64,000 bases of DNA from an uncultured Clostridia bacterium (GCA_944384585.1 CALWTY010000004.1:1563-65562); one strand, 5' to 3'; positions 42,503 through 56,243 are shown, counted from the first letter of the stretch. Program-made: numbers and translations. The notes: generated by a model from the letters alone, not told the origin.

Positions 42503-43675
42503 TCAGTTCTTTCCGACCTGCTCGTAGAGCGGGCTCATATCGCGGAGCCGCTGTACGATCGGCGGGAGCTTTTCGAGAATGTAATCAACGTCCTCTTCGG
42601 TATTTTCGTGAGAGAGCGTGAGACGGAGGGAGCCGTGCGCCTTTTCGGGAGGAAGCCCGATGGAGAGCAGGACGTGGGAGGGCTCAAGAGAGGCGGTCGA
42701 GCAGGCGGAGCCGGTCGAGGCACAGATCCCCGCCATATCCAACAGCAGGATCAGGCTTTCCCCTTCGATAAATTCAAAGGCGACATTGAGGTTTCCGGGC
42801 AGACGATGCTCCATCCCGCCGTTGATGCGGGAGTAGGGGATGCGGGAGACAATCTCCCGGGCAAGACGGTCGCGCATGGCGGCGATCCGTTCCATGTCGG
42901 GAAGCCCCTCCACGGCAAGCTCAAGCGCCTTGGCAAGACCGACGATATAAGCGACGTTTTCCGTCCCGCCGCGCTTGCCGCGCTCCTGTCCGCCGCCGTC
43001 GATGAGGTTGGCGATGCGCACGCCTGTTCTGACATAGAGTACGCCGATCCCCTTGGGGGCGTGGATTTTGTGACCGGAGAGGGCGAGCATATCGACTCCC
43101 AGCTCGGCGACGTTGACGGGAAGATTGCCGATTGCCTGGACGGCATCGGTGAAGAAGGTGATCTTGTGAGCCTTGGCGATTGCCGCCATCTCCCGGATGG
43201 GAAGCACCGAGCCGATCTCATTGTTGGCGTACATCATGGCGATCAGAACGGTATCGGGCCGAATGGCGGCCTCCAGCGCCTCCGGCGCGATCTGTCCGTC
43301 TGCGTCGACCTTGAGGTAGGTGATCTCGAAGCCTTCCTTTTTCAGAGAATCCATCGCGTGCAGCACGGCGTGATGCTCGTAGACTGTCGTGATGATGTGC
43401 CGGCCCTTTGCGGCGTTGGCGCGGGCGGCTCCCTTGATGGCCCAGTTGTCAGACTCCGAGCCGCAGGAGGTGAAGTATATCTCATTGGGCTTTGCCCCGA
43501 TCAGGGAAGCGATTTTCTCCCGTGCGGCGGCAATCGCCAGCGAGGAAGCGCGTCCGATCGAATAGAGGCTGGAGGGGTTTCCGTACTCCGACGAGAGATA
43601 CGGAAGCATTTCTTCCAGAACCTCCGGCGCGACCCGCGTGGTGGCGGCGTGATCGGCATATACGAATTTGGACAT
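42503..43675 (-). CDS. nifS: Cysteine desulfurase, NifS/IscS type
   Basis: DHAATT, TDAVQ, SGHKIHAPKG, STGSACST. Confidence 0.96.
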   Translation of the reverse strand: MSKFVYADHAATTRVAPEVLEEMLPYLSSEYGNPSSLYSIGRASSLAIAAAREKIASLIGAKPNEIYFTSCGSESDNWAIKGAARANAAKGRHIITTVYEHHAVLHAMDSLKKEGFEITYLKVDADGQIAPEALEAAIRPDTVLIAMMYANNEIGSVLPIREMAAIAKAHKITFFTDAVQAIGNLPVNVAELGVDMLALSGHKIHAPKGIGVLYVRTGVRIANLIDGGGQERGKRGGTENVAYIVGLAKALELAVEGLPDMERIAAMRDRLAREIVSRIPYSRINGGMEHRLPGNLNVAFEFIEGESLILLLDMAGICASTGSACSTASLEPSHVLLSIGLPPEKAHGSLRLTLSHENTEEDVDYILEKLPPIVQRLRDMSPLYEQVGKN

Positions 43676-43716
43676 ATGTGAACTCCTTTCGGAATAATCT
43701 TAATTGGTACGATTCT

Positions 43717-43745
43717 ATTGTATACCATTTTAGTGTACTTTTCAA
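43717..43745 (-). promoter_or_regulatory. Sigma-A promoter for nifS-nifU-mnmA
   Basis: TTGAAA-N17-TACAAT on the minus strand. Confidence 0.65.
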
Positions 43746-43945
43746 GAGCTTTGCGAAAAAAAACTGACTAAATTTCGGGCAAACGCGGCAGAATTTTTTG
43801 CCGCATTCCGAAAATAAGCCTCCGACCGCGGCGAACCCGTCGTTTTGCGACCCGGACAAACCGGGAAGGGGCTGCCTCTCTGCGGCGCACGGCGGCTTCG
43901 GATTTCTGCGGACGCCGCGCAAGTTTTCAGAAAATTCAAAGTCGA

Positions 43946-43999
43946 GGAACGCTTTTGGAACAGAAAAGGAACAGGACGGGAACGCCGGTTTGGTATAAT
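43946..43999 (+). promoter_or_regulatory. fab operon promoter with four phased heptamer direct repeats (SARP-type activator geometry)
   Basis: GGAACGC(43946)-TTTT-GGAACAG(43957)-AAAA-GGAACAG(43968)-GACG-GGAACGC(43979)-8 bp-TATAAT(43994); extended TG; no consensus -35. Confidence 0.75.
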
Positions 44000-44036
44000 T
44001 AGGGTAAATATTTTTTTGATGATACGGAGGCACATT

Positions 44037-44261
44037 ATGTTACTCGAAACGATTGCAAAGATTATTGCGGAGCGCACCGACTGCGACCCGGCGGAGGTAA
44101 AGCCGGAAAGCACCTTTGTTGAGCTGGGGATCGATTCTCTCGATACCGTGGAGCTGCTGATGAGTCTGGAGGATGAGCTCGGCATGGAGATCGAGCTGGA
44201 CCAGAAGGTTGAGACGGTGGGCGAGCTGATCGCCTTCATCGAGAAGAAGCAGCAGGCGTAA
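44037..44261 (+). CDS. acpP: Acyl carrier protein
   Basis: LGIDSLDTVELLM; GGAGG RBS. Confidence 0.93.
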   Translation: MLLETIAKIIAERTDCDPAEVKPESTFVELGIDSLDTVELLMSLEDELGMEIELDQKVETVGELIAFIEKKQQA

Positions 44262-44263
44262 TC

Positions 44264-45208
44264 ATGATTCGTTCCGAAATCTGTCGTTTGCTGGGGATCC
44301 GCTACCCGGTGTTTCAGGGCGGAATGGCTTGGGTGGCCGACGGCCGCCTGGCTGCCGCCGTCTCGGAGGGAGGCGGACTCGGCATTATCGCGGCCGGGAA
44401 CGCGCCCGGAGACTATGTGCGGGAGCAGATCCGCATTGCCAAATCCCTGACCGATAAGCCCTTCGGCGTCAATATCATGCTCCTCAGCCCGCATGCCGAC
44501 GAGGTGGCACAGGTCACGGCGGAGGAGAAGGTGGCGGTAGTGACCACCGGCGCCGGAAATCCTTCCAAATATATGGAGCTTTGGACCTCAAACGGAATCA
44601 AGGTGATCCCGGTGGTCGCTTCCGTTGCGATGGCAAAGCTCGTGACCAAGGCGGGCGCTTCCGCTGTCATCGCGGAGGGGGGAGAAAGCGGCGGTCATGT
44701 GGGGGAACTGACCACGATGGTGCTGGTCCCGCAGATCTGCGACGCGGCGCCTCTTCCCGTAATCGCGGCGGGCGGAATTGCCGACGGACGCGGCGTGGCC
44801 GCGGCCTTTATGCTCGGCGCCTGCGCGGTTCAGATGGGAACGCGCTTCCTGTCGGCGGAGGAGTGCAATATTCATCCCGTCTATAAGGAAAAAATCGTGA
44901 AAGCCACCGATCTCTGCACGATGGTGACGGGAAAGCGCCTCGGGCATCCCGTCCGAAGCCTCCGCACCCCCTTCGCCCGGAATTATCTGAAGGCGGAATA
45001 CGGCGGAGCGTCGGATGAGGAACTCGAGGAAATGGGCGTAGGCTCCGTTCGGCTTGCGGTTCAGGAGGGCGATCTGGAAAAGGGAACCTTCCTTGCCGGT
45101 CAGGCTGCCGCGATGGTGAAACGGATTCAGCCTGCTGCCGAAATCGTGAAGGAAGTGATGGAGGAGGCAGAGCCTCTTCTGATGAGGGCTTCGCAATGGG
45201 TAGAATAG
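44264..45208 (+). CDS. fabK: Enoyl-ACP reductase II
   Basis: QGGMAWVA, EGGESGGHVG, AAGGIADGRG, QMGTRF. Confidence 0.95.
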   Translation: MIRSEICRLLGIRYPVFQGGMAWVADGRLAAAVSEGGGLGIIAAGNAPGDYVREQIRIAKSLTDKPFGVNIMLLSPHADEVAQVTAEEKVAVVTTGAGNPSKYMELWTSNGIKVIPVVASVAMAKLVTKAGASAVIAEGGESGGHVGELTTMVLVPQICDAAPLPVIAAGGIADGRGVAAAFMLGACAVQMGTRFLSAEECNIHPVYKEKIVKATDLCTMVTGKRLGHPVRSLRTPFARNYLKAEYGGASDEELEEMGVGSVRLAVQEGDLEKGTFLAGQAAAMVKRIQPAAEIVKEVMEEAEPLLMRASQWVE

Positions 45209-46104
45209 CGTTTTTGTTTTCCGGACAGGGCGATCAGCACGCCGGAATGGGAAAGGAAATTGCCGATCGGTATCCTGCCGCCGCGGAGGTATTTTCTCTC
45301 TGCGACGGGATCCGCCCCGGCACCTCGACGCAATGCTTTGAGGGAAGCGAGGAGGAACTGAAGGAAACCGTGAATACACAGCCCTGCCTGTTTGCCGTCG
45401 AGACGGCGATGGCGGCGGTGCTGAAGGCGGAGGGGATTGCCCCGGAGGCCGTGGCGGGCTTTTCGCTCGGAGAGCTTGCGGCCTGCACCTGTGCCGGCAT
45501 TTTCGACTGCGCAGACGGCTTCCGCGCGGTCTGTCGCCGCGGCGAGCTGATGCAGCACGCCTCCGAGCAGACCGAGACGGCGATGGCGGCGGTCGTCAAG
45601 CTGTCAGAAGAGGCGGTGACCGCTCTGTGCGGCGGCTTTGAAGGGGTGTATCCCGTCAATTTCAACTGCCCGGGTCAGATCACCGTGGCGGGGCTTGCGA
45701 GCCGCATGGCGGACTTTACGGCGGCGGTCAGAGCGGCGGGCGGCAGAGCCATTCCGCTCAAGGTACGGGGAGGCTTCCATTCCCCCTTTATGCAGGAAGC
45801 GTCGGAGGGCTTTGCTGAGGTGCTGGACGGCATGAAGATCGGGCAGCCGAGTCTCTCGGTTTACTCGAATCTGACGGCAGAGCCGTATACCGGGGACGTA
45901 AAGGGACTGCTGTCCGCACAGATCTGTAACCCCGTCCGCTGGGAGCGGACGATCCGCAATATGATCGCGTCGGGGATCGATACCTTTATCGAAATCGGTC
46001 CCGGCAAGACGCTGACCAACATGATGGGCAAAATCGACGCGGGGGTCAGAGCCTGTTCTGCCTCCGAGCTGTCGGTCGTCCTTTCGGAGGTGGAAAAATG
46101 CTGA
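45196..46104 (+). CDS. fabD: Malonyl-CoA:ACP transacylase
   Basis: FSGQG, NTQP, GFSLGE, GGFHSP, EIGPG. Confidence 0.95.
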   Translation: MGRIAFLFSGQGDQHAGMGKEIADRYPAAAEVFSLCDGIRPGTSTQCFEGSEEELKETVNTQPCLFAVETAMAAVLKAEGIAPEAVAGFSLGELAACTCAGIFDCADGFRAVCRRGELMQHASEQTETAMAAVVKLSEEAVTALCGGFEGVYPVNFNCPGQITVAGLASRMADFTAAVRAAGGRAIPLKVRGGFHSPFMQEASEGFAEVLDGMKIGQPSLSVYSNLTAEPYTGDVKGLLSAQICNPVRWERTIRNMIASGIDTFIEIGPGKTLTNMMGKIDAGVRACSASELSVVLSEVEKC

Positions 46105-46826
46105 ACGGGAAGACAGCCGTCGTGACAGGCGGCAGCCGCGGCATCGGCAAGGCGATCGTTCTGAAGCTCGCTTCGCTGGGGGCGGACGTCGCGGTGCTTT
46201 GCGCCGGACGGCTTGACGCGGCGGAGGCGGTCTGCGCCGAATGCGTCGAGCGCTGCGGAGTGAAGGCAAAGGCATACTGCTGCGACGTTTCTGATTTTGA
46301 AAAGGCCAAGCAGACGGTCCTTGCCATCAAAGCGGAGTTCGGGACGGTGCATATCCTGGTGAACAATGCCGGCATCACGCGTGACGGCCTTGCCGCCATG
46401 ATGAAGGAAGAGGATTTCGACGCGGTCCTGGATACCAACCTCAAGGGCGCGTTCAATATGATCCGCCACTGCGTCGGAATGCTGATCCGCAACCGAAGCG
46501 GCTGCATCATCAATATCACCTCGGTCGCAGGGCTGACCGGCAACGCCGGGCAGTGCAACTATGCCGCCTCCAAGGCGGGGCTGATCGGGCTGACCAAATC
46601 GATCGCAAAGGAGCTTGCTCCGAGAGGAATCCGCTGCAATGCCGTCGCGCCCGGCTTTATCGACACCGAGATGACGGAATCCCAGACAGATAATCCTCTT
46701 CTTGCCGCCATTCCGCTCGGACGGATGGGGACGACCGAAGAGGTGGCGGAGGCGGTGGCGTATCTGGCCGAGGCCTCTTATGTGACCGGCGAGGTCCTCC
46801 GCGTTGACGGCGGGATCGCCATGTAA
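46098..46826 (+). CDS. fabG: 3-oxoacyl-ACP reductase
   Basis: TGGSRGIG, NNAGITRDG, NYAASKAG. Confidence 0.95.
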   Translation: MLNGKTAVVTGGSRGIGKAIVLKLASLGADVAVLCAGRLDAAEAVCAECVERCGVKAKAYCCDVSDFEKAKQTVLAIKAEFGTVHILVNNAGITRDGLAAMMKEEDFDAVLDTNLKGAFNMIRHCVGMLIRNRSGCIINITSVAGLTGNAGQCNYAASKAGLIGLTKSIAKELAPRGIRCNAVAPGFIDTEMTESQTDNPLLAAIPLGRMGTTEEVAEAVAYLAEASYVTGEVLRVDGGIAM

Positions 46827-46838
46827 GGAGAAACGATT

Positions 46839-48086
46839 ATGAATGAAACGAACAGACGTGTGGTGGTGACGGGGCTTGGCGCAGTGACGCCGGTCGGCAA
46901 TACCGTCGCGGAGAGCTGGGAGAGCCTGATCACCGGCAAAAACGGCATCGCTCCGATTACACGCTTTGATACGACCGATTCCAAAGCCAAGCTCGGCGCG
47001 GAGGTCAAGAACTTCAACCCTCTCGATTATATGGAAAAATCCGAGATGCTGCGCAGCGACCGCTATACCCATCTGGCGGTGGCGGCGGCGGAACAGGCCA
47101 TGAAGGACAGCGGGGTCGCCGGCAGCGTTGCGCCGGAGCGCTTTTCTGTCTATATCGGCGTCGGCATCGGCGGGATCAGCACGCTGGAAGCGGAGCATAC
47201 CAAGCTGCTGCAGAAGGGCGCGCGCCGCGTCTCCCCGCTCTTCGTTCCGATGATGATTCCGAATATGGCGGCGGGGACAATCGCCATCCGCTATCAATGC
47301 AAGGGAACGGCGATGCCGATCGTAACAGCCTGCGCCTCCGGCTCCAATGCCATCGGTGAGGCGGTTCGTCTGATCCGCCACGGCTATGCCGACGCGGTTA
47401 TTTCGGGAGGCAGCGAGGCTGCCGTGACCCCTCTTTCCATCGCGGGCTTCGTCAATATGCAGGCGCTTTCGGTTTCGGAGGATCCCGATGCCGCCTCGCT
47501 CCCCTTCGACCGTCGCAGAGGCGGCTTCGTGATCGGGGAGGGCTCTGTGGTGCTGGTGCTGGAGGAATATGAGCATGCGGTGTCGCGGGGCGCCCGGATC
47601 TACGGGGAAATCTGCGGCTACGGCTCTACCTGTGACGCGCATCATATCACCGCGCCCGATCCCGACGCAATCGGCGGCTCGGAGGCGATGAAAGCGGCAA
47701 TGCGGGAGGCGGGCTATACCGAGGCCGACCGCGTCTATATCAATGCCCACGGCACCGGAACTCCGATGAACGACCTGACCGAGACGGTCACCATCAAAAA
47801 GGCAATGGGAGAAGAGGCGGCGCGCAGGGCGCTCGTCAGCTCGACGAAATCGATGACGGGGCATATGCTCGGCGCAGCCGGCGCGGTCGAGGCGATGGCT
47901 TGTCTGTTGGCGCTCCGCGACGGGATCATCCCGCCGACGATCAATCTGCTCGAGCCAGATCCCGATTGCGATCTGAATTACACGCCCAACAAGGCGGTCA
48001 AGACGGAGATCGATCTTGCACTTTCCAACTCCCTCGGCTTCGGCGGACATAACGCATGTCTTGCCTTCCGTGCGGTCAGAGGCTGA
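46839..48086 (+). CDS. fabF: 3-oxoacyl-ACP synthase II
   Basis: TACASG, NAHGTGT, KSMTGHMLGAAG, NSLGFGGHN. Confidence 0.97.
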   Translation: MNETNRRVVVTGLGAVTPVGNTVAESWESLITGKNGIAPITRFDTTDSKAKLGAEVKNFNPLDYMEKSEMLRSDRYTHLAVAAAEQAMKDSGVAGSVAPERFSVYIGVGIGGISTLEAEHTKLLQKGARRVSPLFVPMMIPNMAAGTIAIRYQCKGTAMPIVTACASGSNAIGEAVRLIRHGYADAVISGGSEAAVTPLSIAGFVNMQALSVSEDPDAASLPFDRRRGGFVIGEGSVVLVLEEYEHAVSRGARIYGEICGYGSTCDAHHITAPDPDAIGGSEAMKAAMREAGYTEADRVYINAHGTGTPMNDLTETVTIKKAMGEEAARRALVSSTKSMTGHMLGAAGAVEAMACLLALRDGIIPPTINLLEPDPDCDLNYTPNKAVKTEIDLALSNSLGFGGHNACLAFRAVRG

Positions 48087-48098
48087 AAGGATCATGCT

Positions 48099-48536
48099 AT
48101 GAACGAATCTGAAATCAGAAAATATGCCGAGCTGATGAAGGAACTCGGCCTCACAAGGCTGGAGTTCAACGACGACAAGAAGGTCGTCCGGCTCGAGCGT
48201 GCGATTCCCCCTGCCGCCGCGCCGGTGAGCGCCGCTCCCGTTCCGCTGCAGCAGACCGTTCCTGCGGCGTCCACACCGGAGCAGCGCGATTATACAAGCG
48301 TCAGAGCCCCGATGGTCGGTGTCTTTTATTCCGCTCCCGCCGCCAATGCCGAGCCTTTTGTCTCGCCCGGCGACCGCGTGGAGAAGGGAAAGACCCTCTG
48401 CATCATCGAGGCCATGAAGCTGATGAACGAAATCTGCGCGGAGGAAAGCGGCGTGATCACCGAGGTCTGCGTCACCAACGGGCAGGTTGTGGAGTACGGA
48501 ACGGAGCTGTTTCGCTTCAGGAGGGAAAACGCATGA
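48099..48536 (+). CDS. accB: Biotin carboxyl carrier protein
   Basis: APMVGVFY, IEAMKLMNEI. Confidence 0.96.
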   Translation: MNESEIRKYAELMKELGLTRLEFNDDKKVVRLERAIPPAAAPVSAAPVPLQQTVPAASTPEQRDYTSVRAPMVGVFYSAPAANAEPFVSPGDRVEKGKTLCIIEAMKLMNEICAEESGVITEVCVTNGQVVEYGTELFRFRRENA

Positions 48537-48949
48537 ACAAAGAGGAGATCATGAAGCTCCTGCCTCACCGCGAGGATATGCTGCTTCTGGACGACGCCGG
48601 GCGGGATGGCGAGGAGGCGGTCGGGCACTACACCGTGCGGGGAGACGAATTCTTCCTGCGGGGGCATTTCCCCGGCAATCCGATCGTGCCCGGCGTGATC
48701 CTCTGCGAGATCCTGGCACAGTCGGCCTGCGTGCTGCTGGAAGGCGCGCTGACCGAGGGGCAGACGCCGGTTTATACCGGGCTTGATAAGGTTCGCTTCC
48801 GCAGCCCCGTCCGCCCCGGCGATACCATACAGACCCGCTGTCGGATCAAGCGGGCAAAGCATCCGTTCTACTTCGCGGAGGGGACGGCCTCGGTCGGAGA
48901 TCGGGTTTGCGTGACGGCGGAATTTTCCTTTGCCGTTACGGGGAGCTGA
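48533..48949 (+). CDS. fabZ: 3-hydroxyacyl-ACP dehydratase
   Basis: LPHR, GHFPGNPIVPGVILCEILAQ. Confidence 0.93.
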   Translation: MNKEEIMKLLPHREDMLLLDDAGRDGEEAVGHYTVRGDEFFLRGHFPGNPIVPGVILCEILAQSACVLLEGALTEGQTPVYTGLDKVRFRSPVRPGDTIQTRCRIKRAKHPFYFAEGTASVGDRVCVTAEFSFAVTGS

Positions 48950-48952
48950 ACG

Positions 48953-50260
48953 ATGTTTTCCAAAATTCTGATCGCCAATCGCGGAGAGATCGCCGTCCGG
49001 ATCATCCGTGCCTGCAAGGAAATGGGGATTGCCACCGTCGCCGTCTGCTCCGAGGCCGACCGCAATGCGCTGCACGCGGCGCTTGCCGACGAATGCTACT
49101 GCATCGGCCCTGCCGAGGCGCAGGAGAGCTATCTGAACGAAAACCGGATCATTGCAACGGCGCTTCTGGCCGGTGCGCAGGCGATCCATCCCGGATACGG
49201 CTTTCTCTCGGAGAATGCCCATTTTGCAAGGCTCTGCCGCAAGAACGGAATCGTCTTCATCGGCCCTGCGCCCGAGAGCATGGAGCGCCTGAGCGACAAA
49301 GCGGTTCTGAAAAAGCTGATTGAGAAGACGGGACTGACGGTTATTCCCGGTACGGAGGCGGTCTCCTCCGTTGCAGAGGCGACGGAGGCGGCGCGCGCCA
49401 TCGGGTATCCCGTGATGCTCAAGGCCTGCTCCGGCGGCGGCGGACGGGGAATTCGCCTGATCCGATCGGAGGAAGAGCTTGAGCCCGCCTATCTTCAGGC
49501 GACGGCGGAGGCACAGACCTCCTTCGGAGACGGCTCCGTTTATCTTGAAAAATACATTTATCCCGCAAGGCACGTCGAGTTTCAGATCATGGCCGACGAG
49601 CAGGGCAACGTCGTCTGCCTCGGAGAGCGGGACTGCTCACTGCAGAGACGGAATCAGAAACTGCTGGAGGAGACGCCGTCGCCGGCGGTCTCCGGGCAGA
49701 TGCGGCAGCGGATGACGGAGCTGGTGATCGAGGCGGTGAAGACGATCGGATATGTCGGCCTCGGCACGCTGGAATTCCTCCTCGACCGGGAGGGCAATTT
49801 CTGGTTTATGGAGATGAATGTCAGGCTTCAGGTGGAGCATTGCGTGACGGAAATGCTCACCGGCATCGATCTTGTCAAGTGGCAGATCCGCATTGCGGCG
49901 GGGATCGGGATCGGATTCAGTCAGCAGAGCATCCGCTTCTCCGGCTCTGCCATCGAATGCCGCATCAACGCGCAGAACTGCGGGACGCTTCGGATGCTAC
50001 ATGTCCCGGGCGGACCCTTCGTCCGCTTTGATACCTGTCTCATCGAGGGAACGACCGTTACCCCCTACTACGACCCGCTGCTCGGGAAGCTGATCGTTCA
50101 CGCCGCGACAAGGGAGGAGGCGCTTCGGAAGATGCGCGCCGCACTCTGTGAGCTGGTGATCGACGGGATTTCCACGAATATCGAGGAGCAGCTTCGCTTT
50201 GTCGATGACGAGCGCTTTATCCTCGGAAACTATGATCTGACCTTTATGGGAAGCCGATGA
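48953..50260 (+). CDS. accC: Biotin carboxylase
   Basis: LIANRGEIA, HPGYGFLSEN, ERDCSLQRRNQK, EMNVRLQVEH. Confidence 0.97.
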   Translation: MFSKILIANRGEIAVRIIRACKEMGIATVAVCSEADRNALHAALADECYCIGPAEAQESYLNENRIIATALLAGAQAIHPGYGFLSENAHFARLCRKNGIVFIGPAPESMERLSDKAVLKKLIEKTGLTVIPGTEAVSSVAEATEAARAIGYPVMLKACSGGGGRGIRLIRSEEELEPAYLQATAEAQTSFGDGSVYLEKYIYPARHVEFQIMADEQGNVVCLGERDCSLQRRNQKLLEETPSPAVSGQMRQRMTELVIEAVKTIGYVGLGTLEFLLDREGNFWFMEMNVRLQVEHCVTEMLTGIDLVKWQIRIAAGIGIGFSQQSIRFSGSAIECRINAQNCGTLRMLHVPGGPFVRFDTCLIEGTTVTPYYDPLLGKLIVHAATREEALRKMRAALCELVIDGISTNIEEQLRFVDDERFILGNYDLTFMGSR

Positions 50261-50324
50261 CGGCGGGCGGCGTACCGGAAGGACGATTCCGCATTCCCCG
50301 ACGGGGTGCCGATAGGGAGGCAAT

Positions 50325-51188
50325 ATGCCACTGTTTAATTTTTTGAAACCGAAAAATCAGCTTGAGGAAGGGGGACGCAGCGCAGCGCCCGTCCAGCAGG
50401 ACGAGGGCGAGCCGGTCAGAACCTGTCCCAACTGCCGCAAGGAAATTCCCATCAGTCGTCTGCAGAACAATCGCCTCGTCTGCTCCTGCGGCCATCATTT
50501 CAGAATGCGGGCAAGACAGCGCATTCTGATGATTACCGACAAAAACACCTTTTCGGAGCTGTTTGCCGAGGTGCAGTCAAGGGACAGCATCGGCTTCCCC
50601 GGATATCCCGAAAAGCTCGAAACCGTCCGCGCCGCCAGCGGCGAGGAGGAGGCGGTCATCTGCGGAACGGCGATGATCGGAAAGCAGAAATGCTGCCTCT
50701 TCGTGATGGAGCCGACCTTTATGATGGGAAGCATGGGGAGCGCCGTCGGTGAAAGGATCACACGCCTTTTTGAGTACGCGCTGGAAAATCGCCTGCCGGT
50801 CATCGGTTTTACCGTTTCGGGAGGAGCGCGGATGCAGGAGGGGCTTGTTTCCCTGATGCAGATGGCCAAGACCAGTGCCGCCGTAAGGCGCCATTCCGAT
50901 GCGGGACTGCTTTATATCGCGGTGCTGACCGATCCCACAACGGGAGGGGTCACCGCCAGCTTTGCCATGGAGGGCGATATTACATTGGCCGAGCCCGGCG
51001 CAACCGTCGGCTTCGCCGGTGCCCGGGTGATTGAGCAGACGACAAGAAAGCAGCTGCCGAAGGGCTTCCAAACGGCGGAATTCCTTCTGGAGCATGGCTT
51101 TGTCGACGCCATTGCGGACCGGAAGGAGCAGAAAAAGCTCCTGACCGAGCTGCTGAAGCTGCATAACGGAGGTGTCGGGAATGAGTGA
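50325..51188 (+). CDS. accD: Carboxyltransferase beta subunit
   Basis: CPNC..CSC Zn finger, MGSMG, SGGARMQEG, PTTGGVTASFA. Confidence 0.96.
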   Translation: MPLFNFLKPKNQLEEGGRSAAPVQQDEGEPVRTCPNCRKEIPISRLQNNRLVCSCGHHFRMRARQRILMITDKNTFSELFAEVQSRDSIGFPGYPEKLETVRAASGEEEAVICGTAMIGKQKCCLFVMEPTFMMGSMGSAVGERITRLFEYALENRLPVIGFTVSGGARMQEGLVSLMQMAKTSAAVRRHSDAGLLYIAVLTDPTTGGVTASFAMEGDITLAEPGATVGFAGARVIEQTTRKQLPKGFQTAEFLLEHGFVDAIADRKEQKKLLTELLKLHNGGVGNE

Positions 51189-51987
51189 AACGGCCTATGA
51201 CAAGGTAAAACTTGCAAGAAAAAACGACCGGCCGACCGGTCTTGACTATATCCGAGGGATTTTCAAGGGATTCATCGAGCTGCACGGAGACCGTCGCTTC
51301 GGTGATGATCCCGCCGTGGTCGGCGGCCTTGCCTGCATCAGCGGCATCCCGGTGACGGTGATTGCCATTGAAAAGGGTCATACGGCGCGGGAGCGCGCCA
51401 TGCGGAATTTCGGCGCACCGAATCCGGAGGGATATCGGAAGGCGCTTCGCCTGATGAAGCAGGCCGAAAAATTCGGACGCCCCGTCGTTTGCCTGATCGA
51501 TACCTCCGGCGCATTCTGCGGAATCGGCGCGGAGGAACGGGGACAGGGGCAGGCGATTGCCGAAAATCTCACGGAGATGTCGGCGCTGCGCGTTCCGATC
51601 CTGTCGATCCTCGTCGGAGAGGGCGGCAGCGGCGGCGCTCTGGCGCTGGCGGCGGCAGACCGCGTCTTTATGCTGGAGAACGCCGTTTATTCCGTGATTT
51701 CCCCCGAGGGCTGCGCCAGCATCCTCTGGAAGGACGCGACCAAGGCGGAGGAAGCGTCGGAGCATCTCCGACTGACGGCGCAGGATGCGCTTTCGCTCGG
51801 TATCATCGAGAGGATCATCCCCGAAGCCGACATCGGCACCAAGGTCTTTTACGATCGTCTTCGGACCCTCATCGGTGAGGAAATCAAGGCGCTGATAAAG
51901 ACTCCCGGGCTTGTCTCGCAGCGGTATGCCCGCTTCCGCGGCATTGGCTCGGACGAAGCCGCCAAACTTACTGCGAATGAAGGATAA
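51181..51987 (+). CDS. accA: Carboxyltransferase alpha subunit
   Basis: ELHGDR, PEGYRKALR, IDTSGA, GEGGSGGAL, SVISPEGCASILW. Confidence 0.96.
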   Translation: MSETAYDKVKLARKNDRPTGLDYIRGIFKGFIELHGDRRFGDDPAVVGGLACISGIPVTVIAIEKGHTARERAMRNFGAPNPEGYRKALRLMKQAEKFGRPVVCLIDTSGAFCGIGAEERGQGQAIAENLTEMSALRVPILSILVGEGGSGGALALAAADRVFMLENAVYSVISPEGCASILWKDATKAEEASEHLRLTAQDALSLGIIERIIPEADIGTKVFYDRLRTLIGEEIKALIKTPGLVSQRYARFRGIGSDEAAKLTANEG

Positions 51988-51990
51988 ACC

Positions 51991-53637
51991 ATGAGTATAT
52001 ACCAAAAATTTTGCCGCGAGACGGTCGACGACGCGGGACGGCTCGTTCACTTCGAGCTTGACTTTCCGGAGCATTTCAATTTCGGATATGACGTGGTCGA
52101 TGCGATCGCGGAGCAGACCCCCGACAAACGGGCGCTGGTCTGGTGCAATACCGAGAACGAGGAGCGCTTCTTCAGCTTCGGAGAGCTGCGCGACCTCAGC
52201 AATCGGGCAGCCAACGTACTCCGTGCGGCGGGTCTGAAGCGGGGGGACAGAGTCCTGCTCATCCTCAAGCGTCATTATGAGTATTGGATCGCCGTCCTCG
52301 CGCTGCATAAGCTGGGCATCACCGCCATCCCCGCGACCCATATGCTGACCGAAAGCGATTTTGAATACCGCCTGAAGGCATCCGGAGCGGCCGGCGCGAT
52401 CTGCACCCCGCAGAACGGCGTCCCGGAAAAGCTGGCGGCGGCGGTCAGGAAGACGGGGGTTTCCTGTAAGCTGTGGTGCGTGCAGCAAAAGATCGAGGGC
52501 TTTTCCGATTTCACAGAAGAACTGAAAAACGCCTCTCCCTTCCTTCCCCGAATCGCAACCGACGTCTCCGATCCGATGCTTCTCTACTTTACCTCCGGAA
52601 CGACAGGATATCCCAAGGGGGTCATTCATGACTTCTCCTATCCTCTTGCCCATATCGTCACGGCGAAATACTGGCAGCAGGCGGAGGAGGGAGGCCTTCA
52701 TTTTACCGTGGCGGAAACCGGCTGGGGCAAGGCGTCCTGGGGCAAGATCTACGGACAGTGGCTGGTCGGGAGCGCCGTCATGGTCTTTGATTTCGATAAT
52801 TTCGATCCGCGTCAGCTTACGGCGGTGATCAATCGCTACGGTGTGACCTCCTTCTGCGCCCCTCCTACCGTATACCGTTATCTCGTCAGAAAGGAGCTTC
52901 CTCCGATGCCTACCCTCCGCCATGCCTCGACGGCTGGGGAGATGCTGGCGCCCCGTGTTTTCCGTCTCTTTACCGAGAAGACCGGGATTCCGCTCTGCGA
53001 GGGCTACGGGCAGACCGAGACCGCCATGCTTCTCGGCAATCTCAAAGGGGAAGTGCCGGTCGACGGTTCGATGGGGCGGGAATCCCCGCTGTATCATGTC
53101 GAGCTGCGCAACGACGACGGCAGTCCGACACCGAGAGGCGAGGTGGGAGAGCTTGTCGTCGTGCCGCCGGCGGGCGGCCGTCAGCCCGGCCTCTTCAGCG
53201 CCTATCTCGATAATGAGGAGCAGTACCGCTATGTCTGGCGCGGCGGAGTTTATCATACCGGAGACGTTGCCTGGCAGGATGAGGAGGGAGTCTATTGGTT
53301 TCACGGCCGCTTTGACGATATCATCAAGACGGGCGGCTTCCGCGTCGGTCCGTATGAGATCGAAAACGTGCTGATGAAGCATCCCTCCGTGGTGGAATGC
53401 AGCGTGGTCGGAATTCCCGATCCTCTGCGCGGGCAGGCCATTAAAGCCGTGATCGTCCTTTCTCCCGAATATGCCCCCTCAAGGGAGCTTGAAAAGGAGA
53501 TCCGCGACTTCTGCAACGCAAGGCTTGCCGAGTATAAATGGATCCGCTCCATCGATTTTGCCGCCGAGCTTCCCAAAACCATCAGCGGGAAGATCAGGAA
53601 AAACGTTCTTCGCGGCACTGCCGACGAGGAAACGTGA
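51991..53637 (+). CDS. AMP-forming short/medium-chain acyl-CoA synthetase (ACSM/AAE-like)
   Basis: YFTSGTTGYPKGV, AETGWGKASWGKIYGQW, EGYGQTET, YHTGD, PKTISGKI. Confidence 0.9.
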   Translation: MSIYQKFCRETVDDAGRLVHFELDFPEHFNFGYDVVDAIAEQTPDKRALVWCNTENEERFFSFGELRDLSNRAANVLRAAGLKRGDRVLLILKRHYEYWIAVLALHKLGITAIPATHMLTESDFEYRLKASGAAGAICTPQNGVPEKLAAAVRKTGVSCKLWCVQQKIEGFSDFTEELKNASPFLPRIATDVSDPMLLYFTSGTTGYPKGVIHDFSYPLAHIVTAKYWQQAEEGGLHFTVAETGWGKASWGKIYGQWLVGSAVMVFDFDNFDPRQLTAVINRYGVTSFCAPPTVYRYLVRKELPPMPTLRHASTAGEMLAPRVFRLFTEKTGIPLCEGYGQTETAMLLGNLKGEVPVDGSMGRESPLYHVELRNDDGSPTPRGEVGELVVVPPAGGRQPGLFSAYLDNEEQYRYVWRGGVYHTGDVAWQDEEGVYWFHGRFDDIIKTGGFRVGPYEIENVLMKHPSVVECSVVGIPDPLRGQAIKAVIVLSPEYAPSRELEKEIRDFCNARLAEYKWIRSIDFAAELPKTISGKIRKNVLRGTADEET

Positions 53638-53643
53638 AAAATT

Positions 53644-53682
53644 ACCGCTTTTCCCGGAAAAGGGAAAGGCGGTGCTTTTTTT
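53644..53682 (+). terminator. Terminator of the fab operon
   Basis: ACCGC-TTTTCCC..GGGAAA-GGCGGT followed by T7. Confidence 0.7.
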
Positions 53683-53718
53683 GTCGGAGGATTCGGGGGG
53701 AAAACCTTTCGGGAATGA

Positions 53719-53745
53719 TTGACATTTTCGGGGAATATGATATAA
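53719..53745 (+). promoter_or_regulatory. Promoter of the PAS-SARP regulator
   Basis: TTGACA-N15-TATAAT with extended TG; TTTCGGGAAT direct repeats at 53707 and 53726 flank the -35. Confidence 0.55.
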
Positions 53746-53829
53746 TGGTATCCGTAACGGGGAAAATTCCCCGCAAGAGTCCTCCCGCAGCACGGGAAAC
53801 CGCGCTGCTGCCGTAGACCTGGAGATATC

Positions 53830-54684
53830 ATGGATCATTTTCTGACGAATGCCGAAGAGGTTTTCAGCCGCCATATCAGCGGCTTTCATCTGTATATTCT
53901 GAAGCCGTCGATACGGCTGTCCTATGTCAGCGAAAGTCTTTGCCGTCTGACCGGCTACACAAGAGAGGAGCTTCTCGATCGGGATACCGATATCTACTCC
54001 GCGCTGCTGCATCCCTCCGATGCGCCGCTGTTTTCGGAATTCTTAAGAAGGCTGGCCTCGGAAGAGAAGATGCAGACTGCGCAGTATCGGCTGGTACGGA
54101 AGGACGGATCGCTGATCCATGTCAGCGAAACCGCCTCCTGCGGGCGTCTTTCCGACGGTACGCCGGTCGCGTATTGCGTACTGGTGGAGCTTACCCCGAT
54201 GAAAGGCGGCGCGGAGCAGAGTCAGAAGCCGCCGCTGCCTTCCGGTCCCTTGCCGCTGCCGACGGCAAAAAAGGTCTACGTCCGCACCTTCGGCTATTTC
54301 GACGTCTTCATCAATGAGATTCCCATCGCGTTCCGCAATCAGAAATCGAAGGAACTGCTGGCGCTCCTGATCGATCGCCGCGGCGGCTATGTCTCCTCGG
54401 AGGAGGCGATCAGCTATCTCTGGGAGAACGAGCCCATCAATCAGGTCACGATGGCGCGCTACCGAAAGGTCGCAATGCGTCTGAAGCTGATTCTGGAGGA
54501 ATATGGGATTTCCGATATTGTCAGAACCGTCAACGGCAAGCGCTGCATCGTGCCGGGAAAGGTGCGCTGCGATCTCTACAATTATTTGTCGGGAGAGGAA
54601 AAATATTCCCAGCTCTTCAAGGGAAGCTACCTGACCAATTACAGCTGGGGCGAGGTGACGCTCGCCGAGTTGTCGGGGGTGTGA
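53830..54684 (+). CDS. One-component regulator: N-terminal PAS domain + SARP-type (OmpR-like) winged helix with short BTAD-like tail
   Basis: YVSESLCRLTGYTREEL..LLHPSD..YRLVRKDGSLIHV (PAS); VRTFGYFDVF..KSKELLALLIDRRGGYVSSEEAISYLWE..FKGSYLTNYSW; no receiver domain. Confidence 0.8.
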   Translation: MDHFLTNAEEVFSRHISGFHLYILKPSIRLSYVSESLCRLTGYTREELLDRDTDIYSALLHPSDAPLFSEFLRRLASEEKMQTAQYRLVRKDGSLIHVSETASCGRLSDGTPVAYCVLVELTPMKGGAEQSQKPPLPSGPLPLPTAKKVYVRTFGYFDVFINEIPIAFRNQKSKELLALLIDRRGGYVSSEEAISYLWENEPINQVTMARYRKVAMRLKLILEEYGISDIVRTVNGKRCIVPGKVRCDLYNYLSGEEKYSQLFKGSYLTNYSWGEVTLAELSGV

Positions 54685-54727
54685 ATTGCTTCTCGATCCT
54701 CCCCAAAGCATACTTTTCACAAGCATA

Positions 54728-54778
54728 CTCCCCCCGATGCGAACGATTGATCTCGTCCGTATCGGGGGGAGCTTTTTT
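54728..54778. terminator. Terminator between convergent genes
   Basis: CTCCCCCCGATGCG...CGTATCGGGGGGAG followed by a T-tract. Confidence 0.7.
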
Positions 54779-54797
54779 GATTCAAAAATGAAACGGA

Positions 54798-56243
54798 TCA
54801 GTCGCGGCGCTCGCGGAGATGGATATGGCTGAGGCGCTCGTATTCGTCAAAGTCGAGGGCTCTTACGATATCTTCCAGCTCCATGTCGCCCATGGCGGTG
54901 TTGCGTCCGTCTGCATACTGACGGTCGACCTCCTCCTTGATCATGGCGACGAGGGGACTGCGCTTGTCGATGGCGTCCTCTCCCGTCAGACGGAAATAGC
55001 CGTTGATCCAGAAGGCGATGCCGGCAAGGCCGCTGTGCGAGTCGACGGCAACGGTGGCGGGGCGGCCGAGAATCTTCTCGGTGTCGAAGATATTGTAGAT
55101 CTCCTGATCCTTGAGCAGACCGTCGGCATGGATGCCGGCGCGGGTGACGTTGAAGTTCCGTCCGACAAAGGGCGTCCGCGGCGGGATCTCATATCCGATC
55201 TCCTGCTCGAAGTAGTTGGCGATTTCGGTGATGACCGAGAGATCCATTCCGTCGGTCGTGCCGCGGAGGGAGGCATATTCGATCGCCATCGCTTCCAGGG
55301 GGCAGTTTCCCGTCCGTTCTCCGATGCCGAGGAGGGAACAGTTGACGCCGGAGCAGCCGTAGAGCCAGGCGGTGGAGGCATTGGTCACGACCTTATAGAA
55401 ATCGTTGTGGCCGTGCCATTCGATCATGCTGCTGGGGAAGCCCGCATAATGCTGTAACCCGTAGACGATGCCGGGCACGCTTCTCGGCAGGGCTGCGCCG
55501 GGATAGGAGACGCCGAAGCCCATCGTATCGCAGGCGCGGATGCGGATCGGGATGCCGGATTCCTCTGACAGGCCGGCCAGCGCCTCGGCAAAGGGAACGA
55601 CAAAGCCGTAATAATCGGCGCGGGTGATGTCCTCGAAATGGCAGCGCGGACGGATTCCCTTGTCCAGCACGCTTTTGACGATGCCGAGATACTTGTCCAT
55701 CGCTTTGGCGCGGGTCAGTCCCATTTTATTGTAGATGTGATAATCGGAGCAGGAGACAAGCACGCCGGTCTCCTTCAGACCGAGCGACTTGACAAGGTCG
55801 AAATCCTTCTCGTTGGCGCGGATCCAGCTTGTGACCTCCGGGAACTCATATCCGAGGGCGAGGCATTCCTCCACGGCGCGGCGATCCTTCTCGGAATAGA
55901 CGAAGAATTCGCTCTGACGGATCAGTCCGTTCGGTCCGCCGAGCTTGTGGAGCAGTTTGAAGAGGTCGGTGATCTGCCTGACCGTGAAGGGGGAGGTGGA
56001 TTGCTGACCGTCGCGGAAGGTGGTGTCGGTAATCCAGATTTCCTCCGGCATATTGACAGGGACGTAGCGATGATTGAAGGAAATCTTCGGGATCGATTCA
56101 TAATCGAAGAGCTGACGGTAGAGATTCGGGCTCTGACGATCCTGAAGCTGATATTTATAGGCGGATTGCTCAAGCAGGTTGGTGGCGCGTGAGAATTCAA
56201 GCTCCTGACCCTGTTGAATCGGTCGATTGGGGTGTTTCTGCAT
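54798..56243 (-). CDS. Re-citrate synthase (DRE-TIM family, often annotated as isopropylmalate synthase-like)
   Basis: IWITDTTFRDGQQ, EFPEVTSWIRA, SCSDYHI, RCHFEDITRAD, HGHNDF, GIGERTGN; no LeuA regulatory domain; resembles Clostridium kluyveri Re-citrate synthase from memory. Confidence 0.85.
   Translation of the reverse strand: MQKHPNRPIQQGQELEFSRATNLLEQSAYKYQLQDRQSPNLYRQLFDYESIPKISFNHRYVPVNMPEEIWITDTTFRDGQQSTSPFTVRQITDLFKLLHKLGGPNGLIRQSEFFVYSEKDRRAVEECLALGYEFPEVTSWIRANEKDFDLVKSLGLKETGVLVSCSDYHIYNKMGLTRAKAMDKYLGIVKSVLDKGIRPRCHFEDITRADYYGFVVPFAEALAGLSEESGIPIRIRACDTMGFGVSYPGAALPRSVPGIVYGLQHYAGFPSSMIEWHGHNDFYKVVTNASTAWLYGCSGVNCSLLGIGERTGNCPLEAMAIEYASLRGTTDGMDLSVITEIANYFEQEIGYEIPPRTPFVGRNFNVTRAGIHADGLLKDQEIYNIFDTEKILGRPATVAVDSHSGLAGIAFWINGYFRLTGEDAIDKRSPLVAMIKEEVDRQYADGRNTAMGDMELEDIVRALDFDEYERLSHIHLRERRD

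Follow-up and report, generated by a model that had tools for sequence, protein, structure and literature searches.

Few families of transcription factors are known to control bacterial type II fatty-acid synthesis (FASII), namely FadR, FabR, DesT, FapR, FabT and FasR/MabR, and the known Firmicute FASII regulators are repressors. Elsewhere, class-II activation operates, for example, through PhoB at pho boxes and through AfsR at the afsS promoter. Here we examine a 64,000-nucleotide (nt) stretch of DNA from an uncultured Clostridia bacterium (GCA_944384585.1, CALWTY010000004.1:1563-65562), referred to as the window, which carries a FASII operon with the same acp-to-accA gene order as the streptococcal-type cluster. 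Unlike that cluster, the operon has no fabH at its head. It ends in a gene for a MACS/MbcS-like acyl-CoA ligase, is preceded by an array of GGAAC direct repeats, and is followed by the gene for a one-component regulator with an N-terminal PAS sensor and a C-terminal winged helix. We consider it probable that this regulator is an activator which, bound at the GGAAC array, drives the FabH-less fab-acc-ligase operon according to the state of its PAS domain, and that the ligase probably feeds primers into the pathway.

The first-pass annotation of this DNA had drawn attention to a repeat geometry at the 5' end of the operon, and this geometry is real. The last of four GGAAC pentamers ends 10 nt before an extended -10 element (Table 1), a promoter that a generic consensus promoter scan missed. 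When the window was shuffled 100 times with its dinucleotides preserved, a three-repeat GGAAC pattern never turned up. The assembly from which the window derives (G000; 2.29 Mb, 95% complete, from chicken-gut metagenomes) holds only four GGAAC-N6-GGAAC pairs, three of them within the fab array. This is the sole such array in the assembly, and the regulator family likewise has a single member there. In a sister species (G012) the fab promoter reads GGAACgcaagtGGAACagaatgGGAACagctaaGGAACggacttttGGTATAAT, with the four pentamers and the -10 preserved and the spacers changed.

We compared the locus among 401 species (genomes) of the order Oscillospirales. An operon was scored as ligase-type if a ligase at least 58% identical to that of the window lay directly after accD-accA, a regulator as orthologous at E<=1e-61, and FabH as present if its score was above the Pfam cut-off. 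A search with the ligase as query found ligase-type operons in 25 genomes, and regulator orthologues occur in 19, usually as proteins of about 650 amino acids (aa) with several PAS domains. The two coincide in 18 genomes, while one genome has the regulator only, seven have the operon only and 375 have neither (Fisher's exact test, p=1e-24). The regulator, the GGAAC operator and the FabH-less ligase operon are found together across at least eight GTDB families, and also in one genome of another Clostridia order. The trio could have been a peculiarity of a single genome; its presence in 18 of the 401 species shows that the linkage is not unique to this one.

The arrangement of the trio is also preserved. 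The regulator gene lies either directly after the ligase or divergently beside the array, and in most of the 25 ligase-type genomes the long regulator is the next same-strand gene after the ligase; the same order recurs in metagenome contigs and in one NCBI metagenome-assembled genome. An exact-pattern scan of the 401 species found four further four-repeat arrays, all directly before acp-fabK (FabK about 80% identical) and adjoined by the gene for a 650-aa regulator that joins the same winged helix to several PAS-like modules. A census of exact triple GGAAC repeats undercounts the arrays, recovering 5 fab promoters of at least 16, since repeat 3 is degenerate in most genomes.

All 17 readable promoters, 16 from regulator-bearing genomes and one from a metagenome contig, contain GGAAC-N6-GGAAC-N17-GGAAC-N10/11-TATAAT. 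Across these promoters repeats 1, 2 and 4 are invariant and the spacers unrelated. Repeat 3, which occupies the place of a -35 box, is degenerate in many of them, and no promoter matches the -35 consensus at more than 3 of 6 positions (range 0-3). In contrast, the promoters of regulator-less ligase-type operons show no GGAAC array, and consist of TTGACA-17-TATAAT (12/12) in G351, G067 and G323 and of TTGACA-16-TACAAT (11/12) in G030. The array is present at 17/17 promoters with the regulator versus 0/6 without it. A canonical -35 in the regulator-less operons is what would be expected if the regulator supplies the missing -35 contact. Support for a link between regulator, operator and operon is strong.

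FabH itself is missing, as had been claimed: neither PF08545 nor PF08541 was found anywhere in the 95%-complete assembly, in which FabF is the only condensing enzyme detected by tblastn. The same holds across the order, with FabH in 0/25 ligase-type genomes versus 150/376 others (p=6e-6); in the FabH-type operons of this order, fabH lies immediately upstream of acp. Of the FabT-FabH module that the earlier proposal took to be replaced, FabH is absent and no MarR-family gene is linked to the fab genes. The contig of the window has no MarR-family gene, and 13 MarR_2 matches lie elsewhere in the assembly, so that an unlinked FabT orthologue is possible. The replacement of FabT itself is suggested by one comparison, with a species of the same genus (G008) in which a MarR gene heads a related operon with a 43%-identical ligase.

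The ligase has AMP-binding (E=2e-60) and AMP-binding_C (E=5e-22) Pfam domains. Its best NCBIfam model is MbcS (NF047394), at 377 bits, below the equivalog cut-off of 850, and its PDB matches include MacsMa of M. acetivorans (3ETC, E=5e-166) and ACSM2A (E=1e-89). By this homology, the protein belongs to the medium-chain acyl-CoA synthetases (MACS/ACSM) of the ANL superfamily. MacsMa (3ETC) prefers 2-methylbutyrate, and MacsMa and MbcS both act on branched C4-C5 acids, not acetate. MbcS differs in that it works through FabH, which is absent here, and the present ligase gene is embedded in the fab-acc operon. In S. aureus, according to one report (PMC10026030), MbcS furnishes fatty-acid synthesis with branched primers. 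Taken together, the lack of FabH, the lone FabF and the fixed last position of the ligase gene suggest that this enzyme activates short or branched acids for use as primers. From the mutual exclusion with FabH and the MacsMa/MbcS homology we infer that the ligase may supply primers in place of FabH, a role with weaker support than the regulatory link.

It is also possible, though less likely than not, that the ligase is no substitute for FabH, and that FabF decarboxylates malonyl-ACP to acetyl-ACP for initiation while the ligase only replenishes acyl-CoA (from acetate or propionate, for the carboxylase) or recycles acids. FabF overproduction reportedly bypasses the loss of fabH in Lactococcus, decarboxylation routes of initiation exist in Proteobacteria, and to our knowledge no route puts acyl-CoA onto FabF without a KAS III; all three points favor initiation by FabF. 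So do the constant position of the ligase gene after accA and the two genomes (G360 and G267) that retain FabH beside a more distant ligase (49-52%) in the fab operon, which make the exclusion less than strict. However, FabH and a ligase of at least 58% identity are mutually exclusive throughout the 401 genomes, and the branched substrates of MacsMa and MbcS, the nearest characterized relatives, argue against a supply of acetate.

The regulator gene is set apart from the operon by a terminator and a promoter of its own, and its leader of 84 nt has no Rfam match. This promoter is kept in the sister species, where the remaining upstream sequence is not. The protein has a PAS_3 domain at residues 32-113 (Pfam, E=7e-13) and a disordered proline-rich linker at 124-144. 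The winged helix falls below the Pfam threshold (Trans_reg_C, E=0.01-0.02, 16-17 bits versus a cut-off of 26.2), and within the family the DNA-binding domain has 55 invariant columns. A Foldseek search with an AlphaFold2 model of this domain matched the AfsR transcription-activation complex (8HVR, E=6e-4, template-modeling (TM) score 0.62; 8K60, likewise 0.62) and EmbR (2FF4, TM score 0.63), followed by ArlR, SaeR and PhoB. With the full-length model, PAS and LOV matches dominate and give no clue to the ligand. A LOV-type flavin sensor was ruled out by inspection of the sequence, the conserved Cys being in the wrong helix. There is no Response_reg match in the regulator, whose N-terminus is PAS_3, and no BTAD match even at E<=10, with only about 40 residues after the wing. 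The window protein aligns with residues 9-130 and 500-664 of a 668-aa form and, judged from its sequence, is an internal-deletion version that keeps the first PAS domain and the DNA-binding domain. The 668-aa orthologue (WP_458862475) from a cultured species, Acidaminobacterium chupaoyuni, is labeled by NCBI only as 'PAS domain-containing protein'.

Relatives of the DNA-binding domain extend beyond the fab-linked group. Two distant PAS-GGDEF-winged-helix proteins, of 758 aa (G355, L106 8143-11745) and 1104 aa (G131, L107 364-11109), have DNA-binding domains 53-56% identical to that of the regulator, and adjoin GGAAC-N6-GGAAC arrays upstream of non-fab genes. Arrays beside these relatives indicate that the domain family is tied to the GGAAC motif independently of fab genes. 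The array in G131 precedes a gene set for a signal peptidase and LPXTG/SpaA/Cna_B surface proteins. The domain family thus appears to control non-lipid regulons as well, possibly with a link to c-di-GMP. A two-PAS family member of 418 aa (P0009; L101/L102) lies in a xylan-utilization/GGDEF neighborhood with no fab genes nearby, which implies that some close homologues are not linked to FASII. In three further proteins (P0045, P0074 and P0103), an N-terminal part of AccC is fused in frame to the regulator's last PAS-like module and winged helix, and one cluster of such fusions holds 36 member sequences. These look like accC-to-regulator deletions or assembly chimeras, and they fit the same-strand gene order there.

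The regulator had been described as SARP-type, and this description applies to the DNA-binding fold, though not to the protein as a whole. As in the SARPs (AfsR, ActII-ORF4, DnrI, EmbR), the winged-helix fold is nearest those of AfsR and EmbR, and direct repeats in 11-bp phase overlap the -35 region and end 8-10 nt before the -10, with binding here inferred from co-occurrence. Behind the wing, a short conserved tail may be the counterpart of the first BTAD helices (the Foldseek alignments cover 109-120 columns). In contrast with the SARPs, the regulator has no BTAD, and its DNA-binding domain is C-terminal, behind the PAS domain, not N-terminal. Furthermore, its hosts are Clostridia rather than actinomycetes, its target is core fatty-acid synthesis rather than secondary metabolism, and its sequence similarity is marginal (E~0.07). 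It is not a SARP.

Three other systems offer partial parallels. Response regulators of the PhoB/OmpR type share the OmpR-type winged helix and tandem 11-bp repeats that replace the -35 and end 10 bp from the -10; here, however, receiver domain and kinase partner are both missing, and the fused PAS input makes this a one-component protein. FabT (of the MarR family) and FapR resemble it as single dedicated regulators of an acp-fabK...accA cluster, but their folds are unrelated, control here is probably positive, the regulator gene is usually at the 3' end of the operon, and the sensor is a PAS domain rather than one that binds acyl-ACP or malonyl-CoA. Finally, P0086, a protein closely homologous in the DNA-binding domain, is listed by one source as a COG3947-type 'SAPR family' response regulator. 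Proteins of about 270-290 aa, 30-48% identical in the DNA-binding domain, are common in the order. COG3947-type regulators of Clostridia presumably carry a receiver domain, whereas members of the fab-linked group have PAS modules and cluster tightly, at 66-78% identity over the DNA-binding domain.

These comparisons suggest how the promoter may work. The C-terminal OmpR/SARP-type winged helix would bind the GGAAC direct repeats head-to-tail, the repeats lying on one face of the DNA at about -60, -49, -38 and -27 from the predicted start site. The bound regulator would recruit RNA polymerase to a good -10 that has no -35, as in class-II activation. Transcription of the whole of FASII, acetyl-CoA carboxylase and the ligase would then be set by the N-terminal PAS sensor, and the MACS/MbcS-like ligase would probably prime synthesis with scavenged acids, short or branched, all condensation falling to FabF. 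Activation is moderately supported.

Could the regulator instead repress, or merely fine-tune, an extended -10 promoter, with the PAS domain sensing, for example, exogenous fatty acid in the manner of FabT or FapR? We find this unlikely. It would agree with the TGn that precedes the -10 in five genomes (G000, G012, G058, G353 and G371), with the repressive action of the known Firmicute regulators, and with an array that, extending from about -60 to -23, would stand in the way of polymerase. However, 11/16 array promoters have no TGn and none has a usable -35, and the regulator-less orthologous operons all gained a perfect -35. In addition, the phase of the repeats and their distance from the -10 fit PhoB and SARP activator sites, and the closest fold is that of AfsR in an activation complex. 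That some other factor binds the repeats and the regulator is a mere neighbor with a different target is very improbable: the separate contigs of regulator and operon in the sister species would permit it, but the matched presence of array and regulator (17/17 versus 0/6), the single family member and single array of the window's assembly, their joint absence from an empty site in a same-genus genome (G013), and the GGAAC repeats beside paralogues with the same DNA-binding domain all speak for the regulator.

Several observations nevertheless weigh against activation by this regulator or against parts of the model, in addition to the imperfect exclusion of FabH noted above. Repeat 3 is degenerate in most genomes, which bears on the stoichiometry of binding. 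Extended -10 promoters could fire without an activator, so that the array could modulate rather than switch transcription. Matches between the DNA-binding domain and known families stay below threshold with Pfam, with phmmer against the PDB and with a 29-homologue profile (AfsR, E~0.07), and the domain-only AlphaFold2 model has a pLDDT of just 70. Contigs from a chicken-gut metatranscriptome are scattered pieces of about 150 nt, too sparse for placement of the start site or for operon information; one piece covers the operator and may be DNA carry-over. In the sister species, the operon and the regulator fall on two contigs, with the ligase gene followed by an IS3 element.

The last point touches on the history of the locus. 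The sister species has the same operon (FabK 91%, ligase 79% and regulator 71% identical). Its contigs end 250-700 bp before the regulator gene, and one metagenome contig has a different upstream gene there. The IS3-family element (L016 1862-3063), with open reading frames for a 116-aa OrfA-like protein and a 284-aa transposase, separates the ligase gene from a gene for a PcrA/UvrD helicase. In this species the linkage between operon and regulator has apparently undergone rearrangement. In the same-genus empty site, only 220 bp separate the nifS-like and nifV-like genes, between which the window has its 11-kb region; operon and regulator are missing together, as one block. Among the 18 sampled species of the window's genus (G001-G018), 16 have no FabK and apparently no FASII, and these are probably fatty-acid auxotrophs; the regulator, too, is missing from most species of the genus. 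Across families, FabK is 74-91% identical among ligase-type operons, whereas FabH-type operons within the order reach 53-63%. This pattern suggests that the cassette is conserved, and it is probably mobile.

Two insertions bear on what the cassette carries. In the complete genome of A. chupaoyuni (CP176394), acpS, for holo-ACP synthase, lies between ligase and regulator (L108 1532-1900), and in G371 a biotin-protein-ligase-like gene occupies this place (L049 3870-4589). In some species, then, the cassette carries enzymes that attach cofactors to ACP or AccB. A broader reading, which we offer tentatively and hold to be possible rather than likely, is that of a self-contained, horizontally mobile, KAS III-free FASII cassette in which the MACS-type ligase loads scavenged short or branched acids on CoA, or directly on ACP, for a single FabF, and the PAS-winged-helix activator, a new family of FASII regulator, answers a lipid or primer-related signal. 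If this is true, gut and rumen Oscillospirales would show bacteria both initiating fatty-acid synthesis by a new route and controlling it by a new logic.

In the searchable full-text literature we found no description of a SARP or PAS regulator of fab genes, of a FabH-less Clostridia operon ending in a ligase, or of the replacement of FabH by a ligase, in line with the earlier remark that no described SARP-type regulator of core FASII was known. Each known family of FASII transcription factors has reshaped views of membrane balance, and the present regulator would add a positive, PAS-sensing, one-component member in abundant and poorly studied gut Clostridia. The proposal can be tested directly, since the predicted operator is resolved to single base pairs and one carrier has been cultured and completely sequenced. 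In about 6% of the sampled Oscillospirales species, FASII runs without FabH and is invariably accompanied by a MACS-like ligase. This observation suggests an undescribed mode of chain initiation, for which the short and branched acids predominant in gut and rumen fluid are the probable starting material, and bears on long-known growth requirements for branched acids as well as on the action of FabH- or FASII-targeted inhibitors on commensals.

The full anatomy of the locus is given in Table 1. The gene order originally proposed, from acp through fabK, fabD, fabG, fabF, accB, fabZ, accC, accD and accA to the ligase and then the regulator, was upheld, with all operon gene assignments borne out by Pfam and NCBIfam searches. 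The genes from acp to the ligase are tightly packed on the + strand, the start codon of the ligase lying 3 nt past the accA stop. The same searches assign the flanks of the operon-regulator region to the nifS-like and nifV-like genes.

Table 1. Coordinates of the features of the fab operon and its regulator, counted from the first nucleotide of the window
Feature	Position	Strand	Basis or remarks
Predicted operator, four GGAAC direct repeats, 11-bp period	43946..43983	+	repeats at 43946, 43957, 43968, 43979
Extended -10 of fab promoter, TGgTATAAT	43991..43999	+	-35 box absent (best match 1/6)
acp (acyl carrier protein, 74 aa)	44037..44261	+	TIGR00517, E=3e-19; PP-binding domain
fabK (FMN enoyl-ACP reductase II)	44264..45208	+	TIGR03151, 465 bits, exceeds cut-off
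fabD (malonyl-CoA:ACP transacylase)	45196..46104	+	Acyl_transf_1, E=1e-39
fabG (3-oxoacyl-ACP reductase)	46098..46826	+	adh_short, E=3e-62
fabF (KAS II)	46839..48086	+	TIGR03150, 580 bits, exceeds cut-off; single tblastn match in assembly
accB (biotin carboxyl carrier protein)	48099..48536	+	Biotin_lipoyl
fabZ (3-hydroxyacyl-ACP dehydratase)	48533..48949	+	FabA-like domain
accC (biotin carboxylase)	48953..50260	+	NF006367, 604 bits, exceeds cut-off
accD (carboxyltransferase beta)	50325..51188	+	TIGR00515, 322 bits, exceeds cut-off
accA (carboxyltransferase alpha)	51172..51987	+	NF004344, 360 bits, exceeds cut-off
AMP-ligase, MACS/MbcS-like, short/medium-chain acyl-CoA synthetase-like; last gene of operon	51991..53637	+	Pfam, NCBIfam and PDB match
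Intrinsic terminator closing fab operon	53643..53684	+	13-pair stem 53643-53674, then T-run
Regulator promoter, TTGACA-16-TATAAT with TG (12/12)	53719..53746	+	consensus promoter scan
One-component regulator, 284 aa	53830..54684	+	PAS ~17-120, Pro-rich linker 124-144, SARP/OmpR-like winged helix 149-247, invariant 40-aa tail

An Rfam scan of 43400-55000 found no riboswitch and no leader family. The short fab leaders of the window and of the sister species have no hairpin of the kind seen in genomes with the long regulator, where most fab leaders (L081-L092) contain a small hairpin about 20-60 nt before the acp ribosome-binding site. The stems of these hairpins vary yet stay paired (GGCGG..CGCCG, AGCG..CGCT, GGCAGC..CTGCC), and are followed by ttgaaaa. 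This hairpin could be an mRNA-stabilizing or regulatory element.

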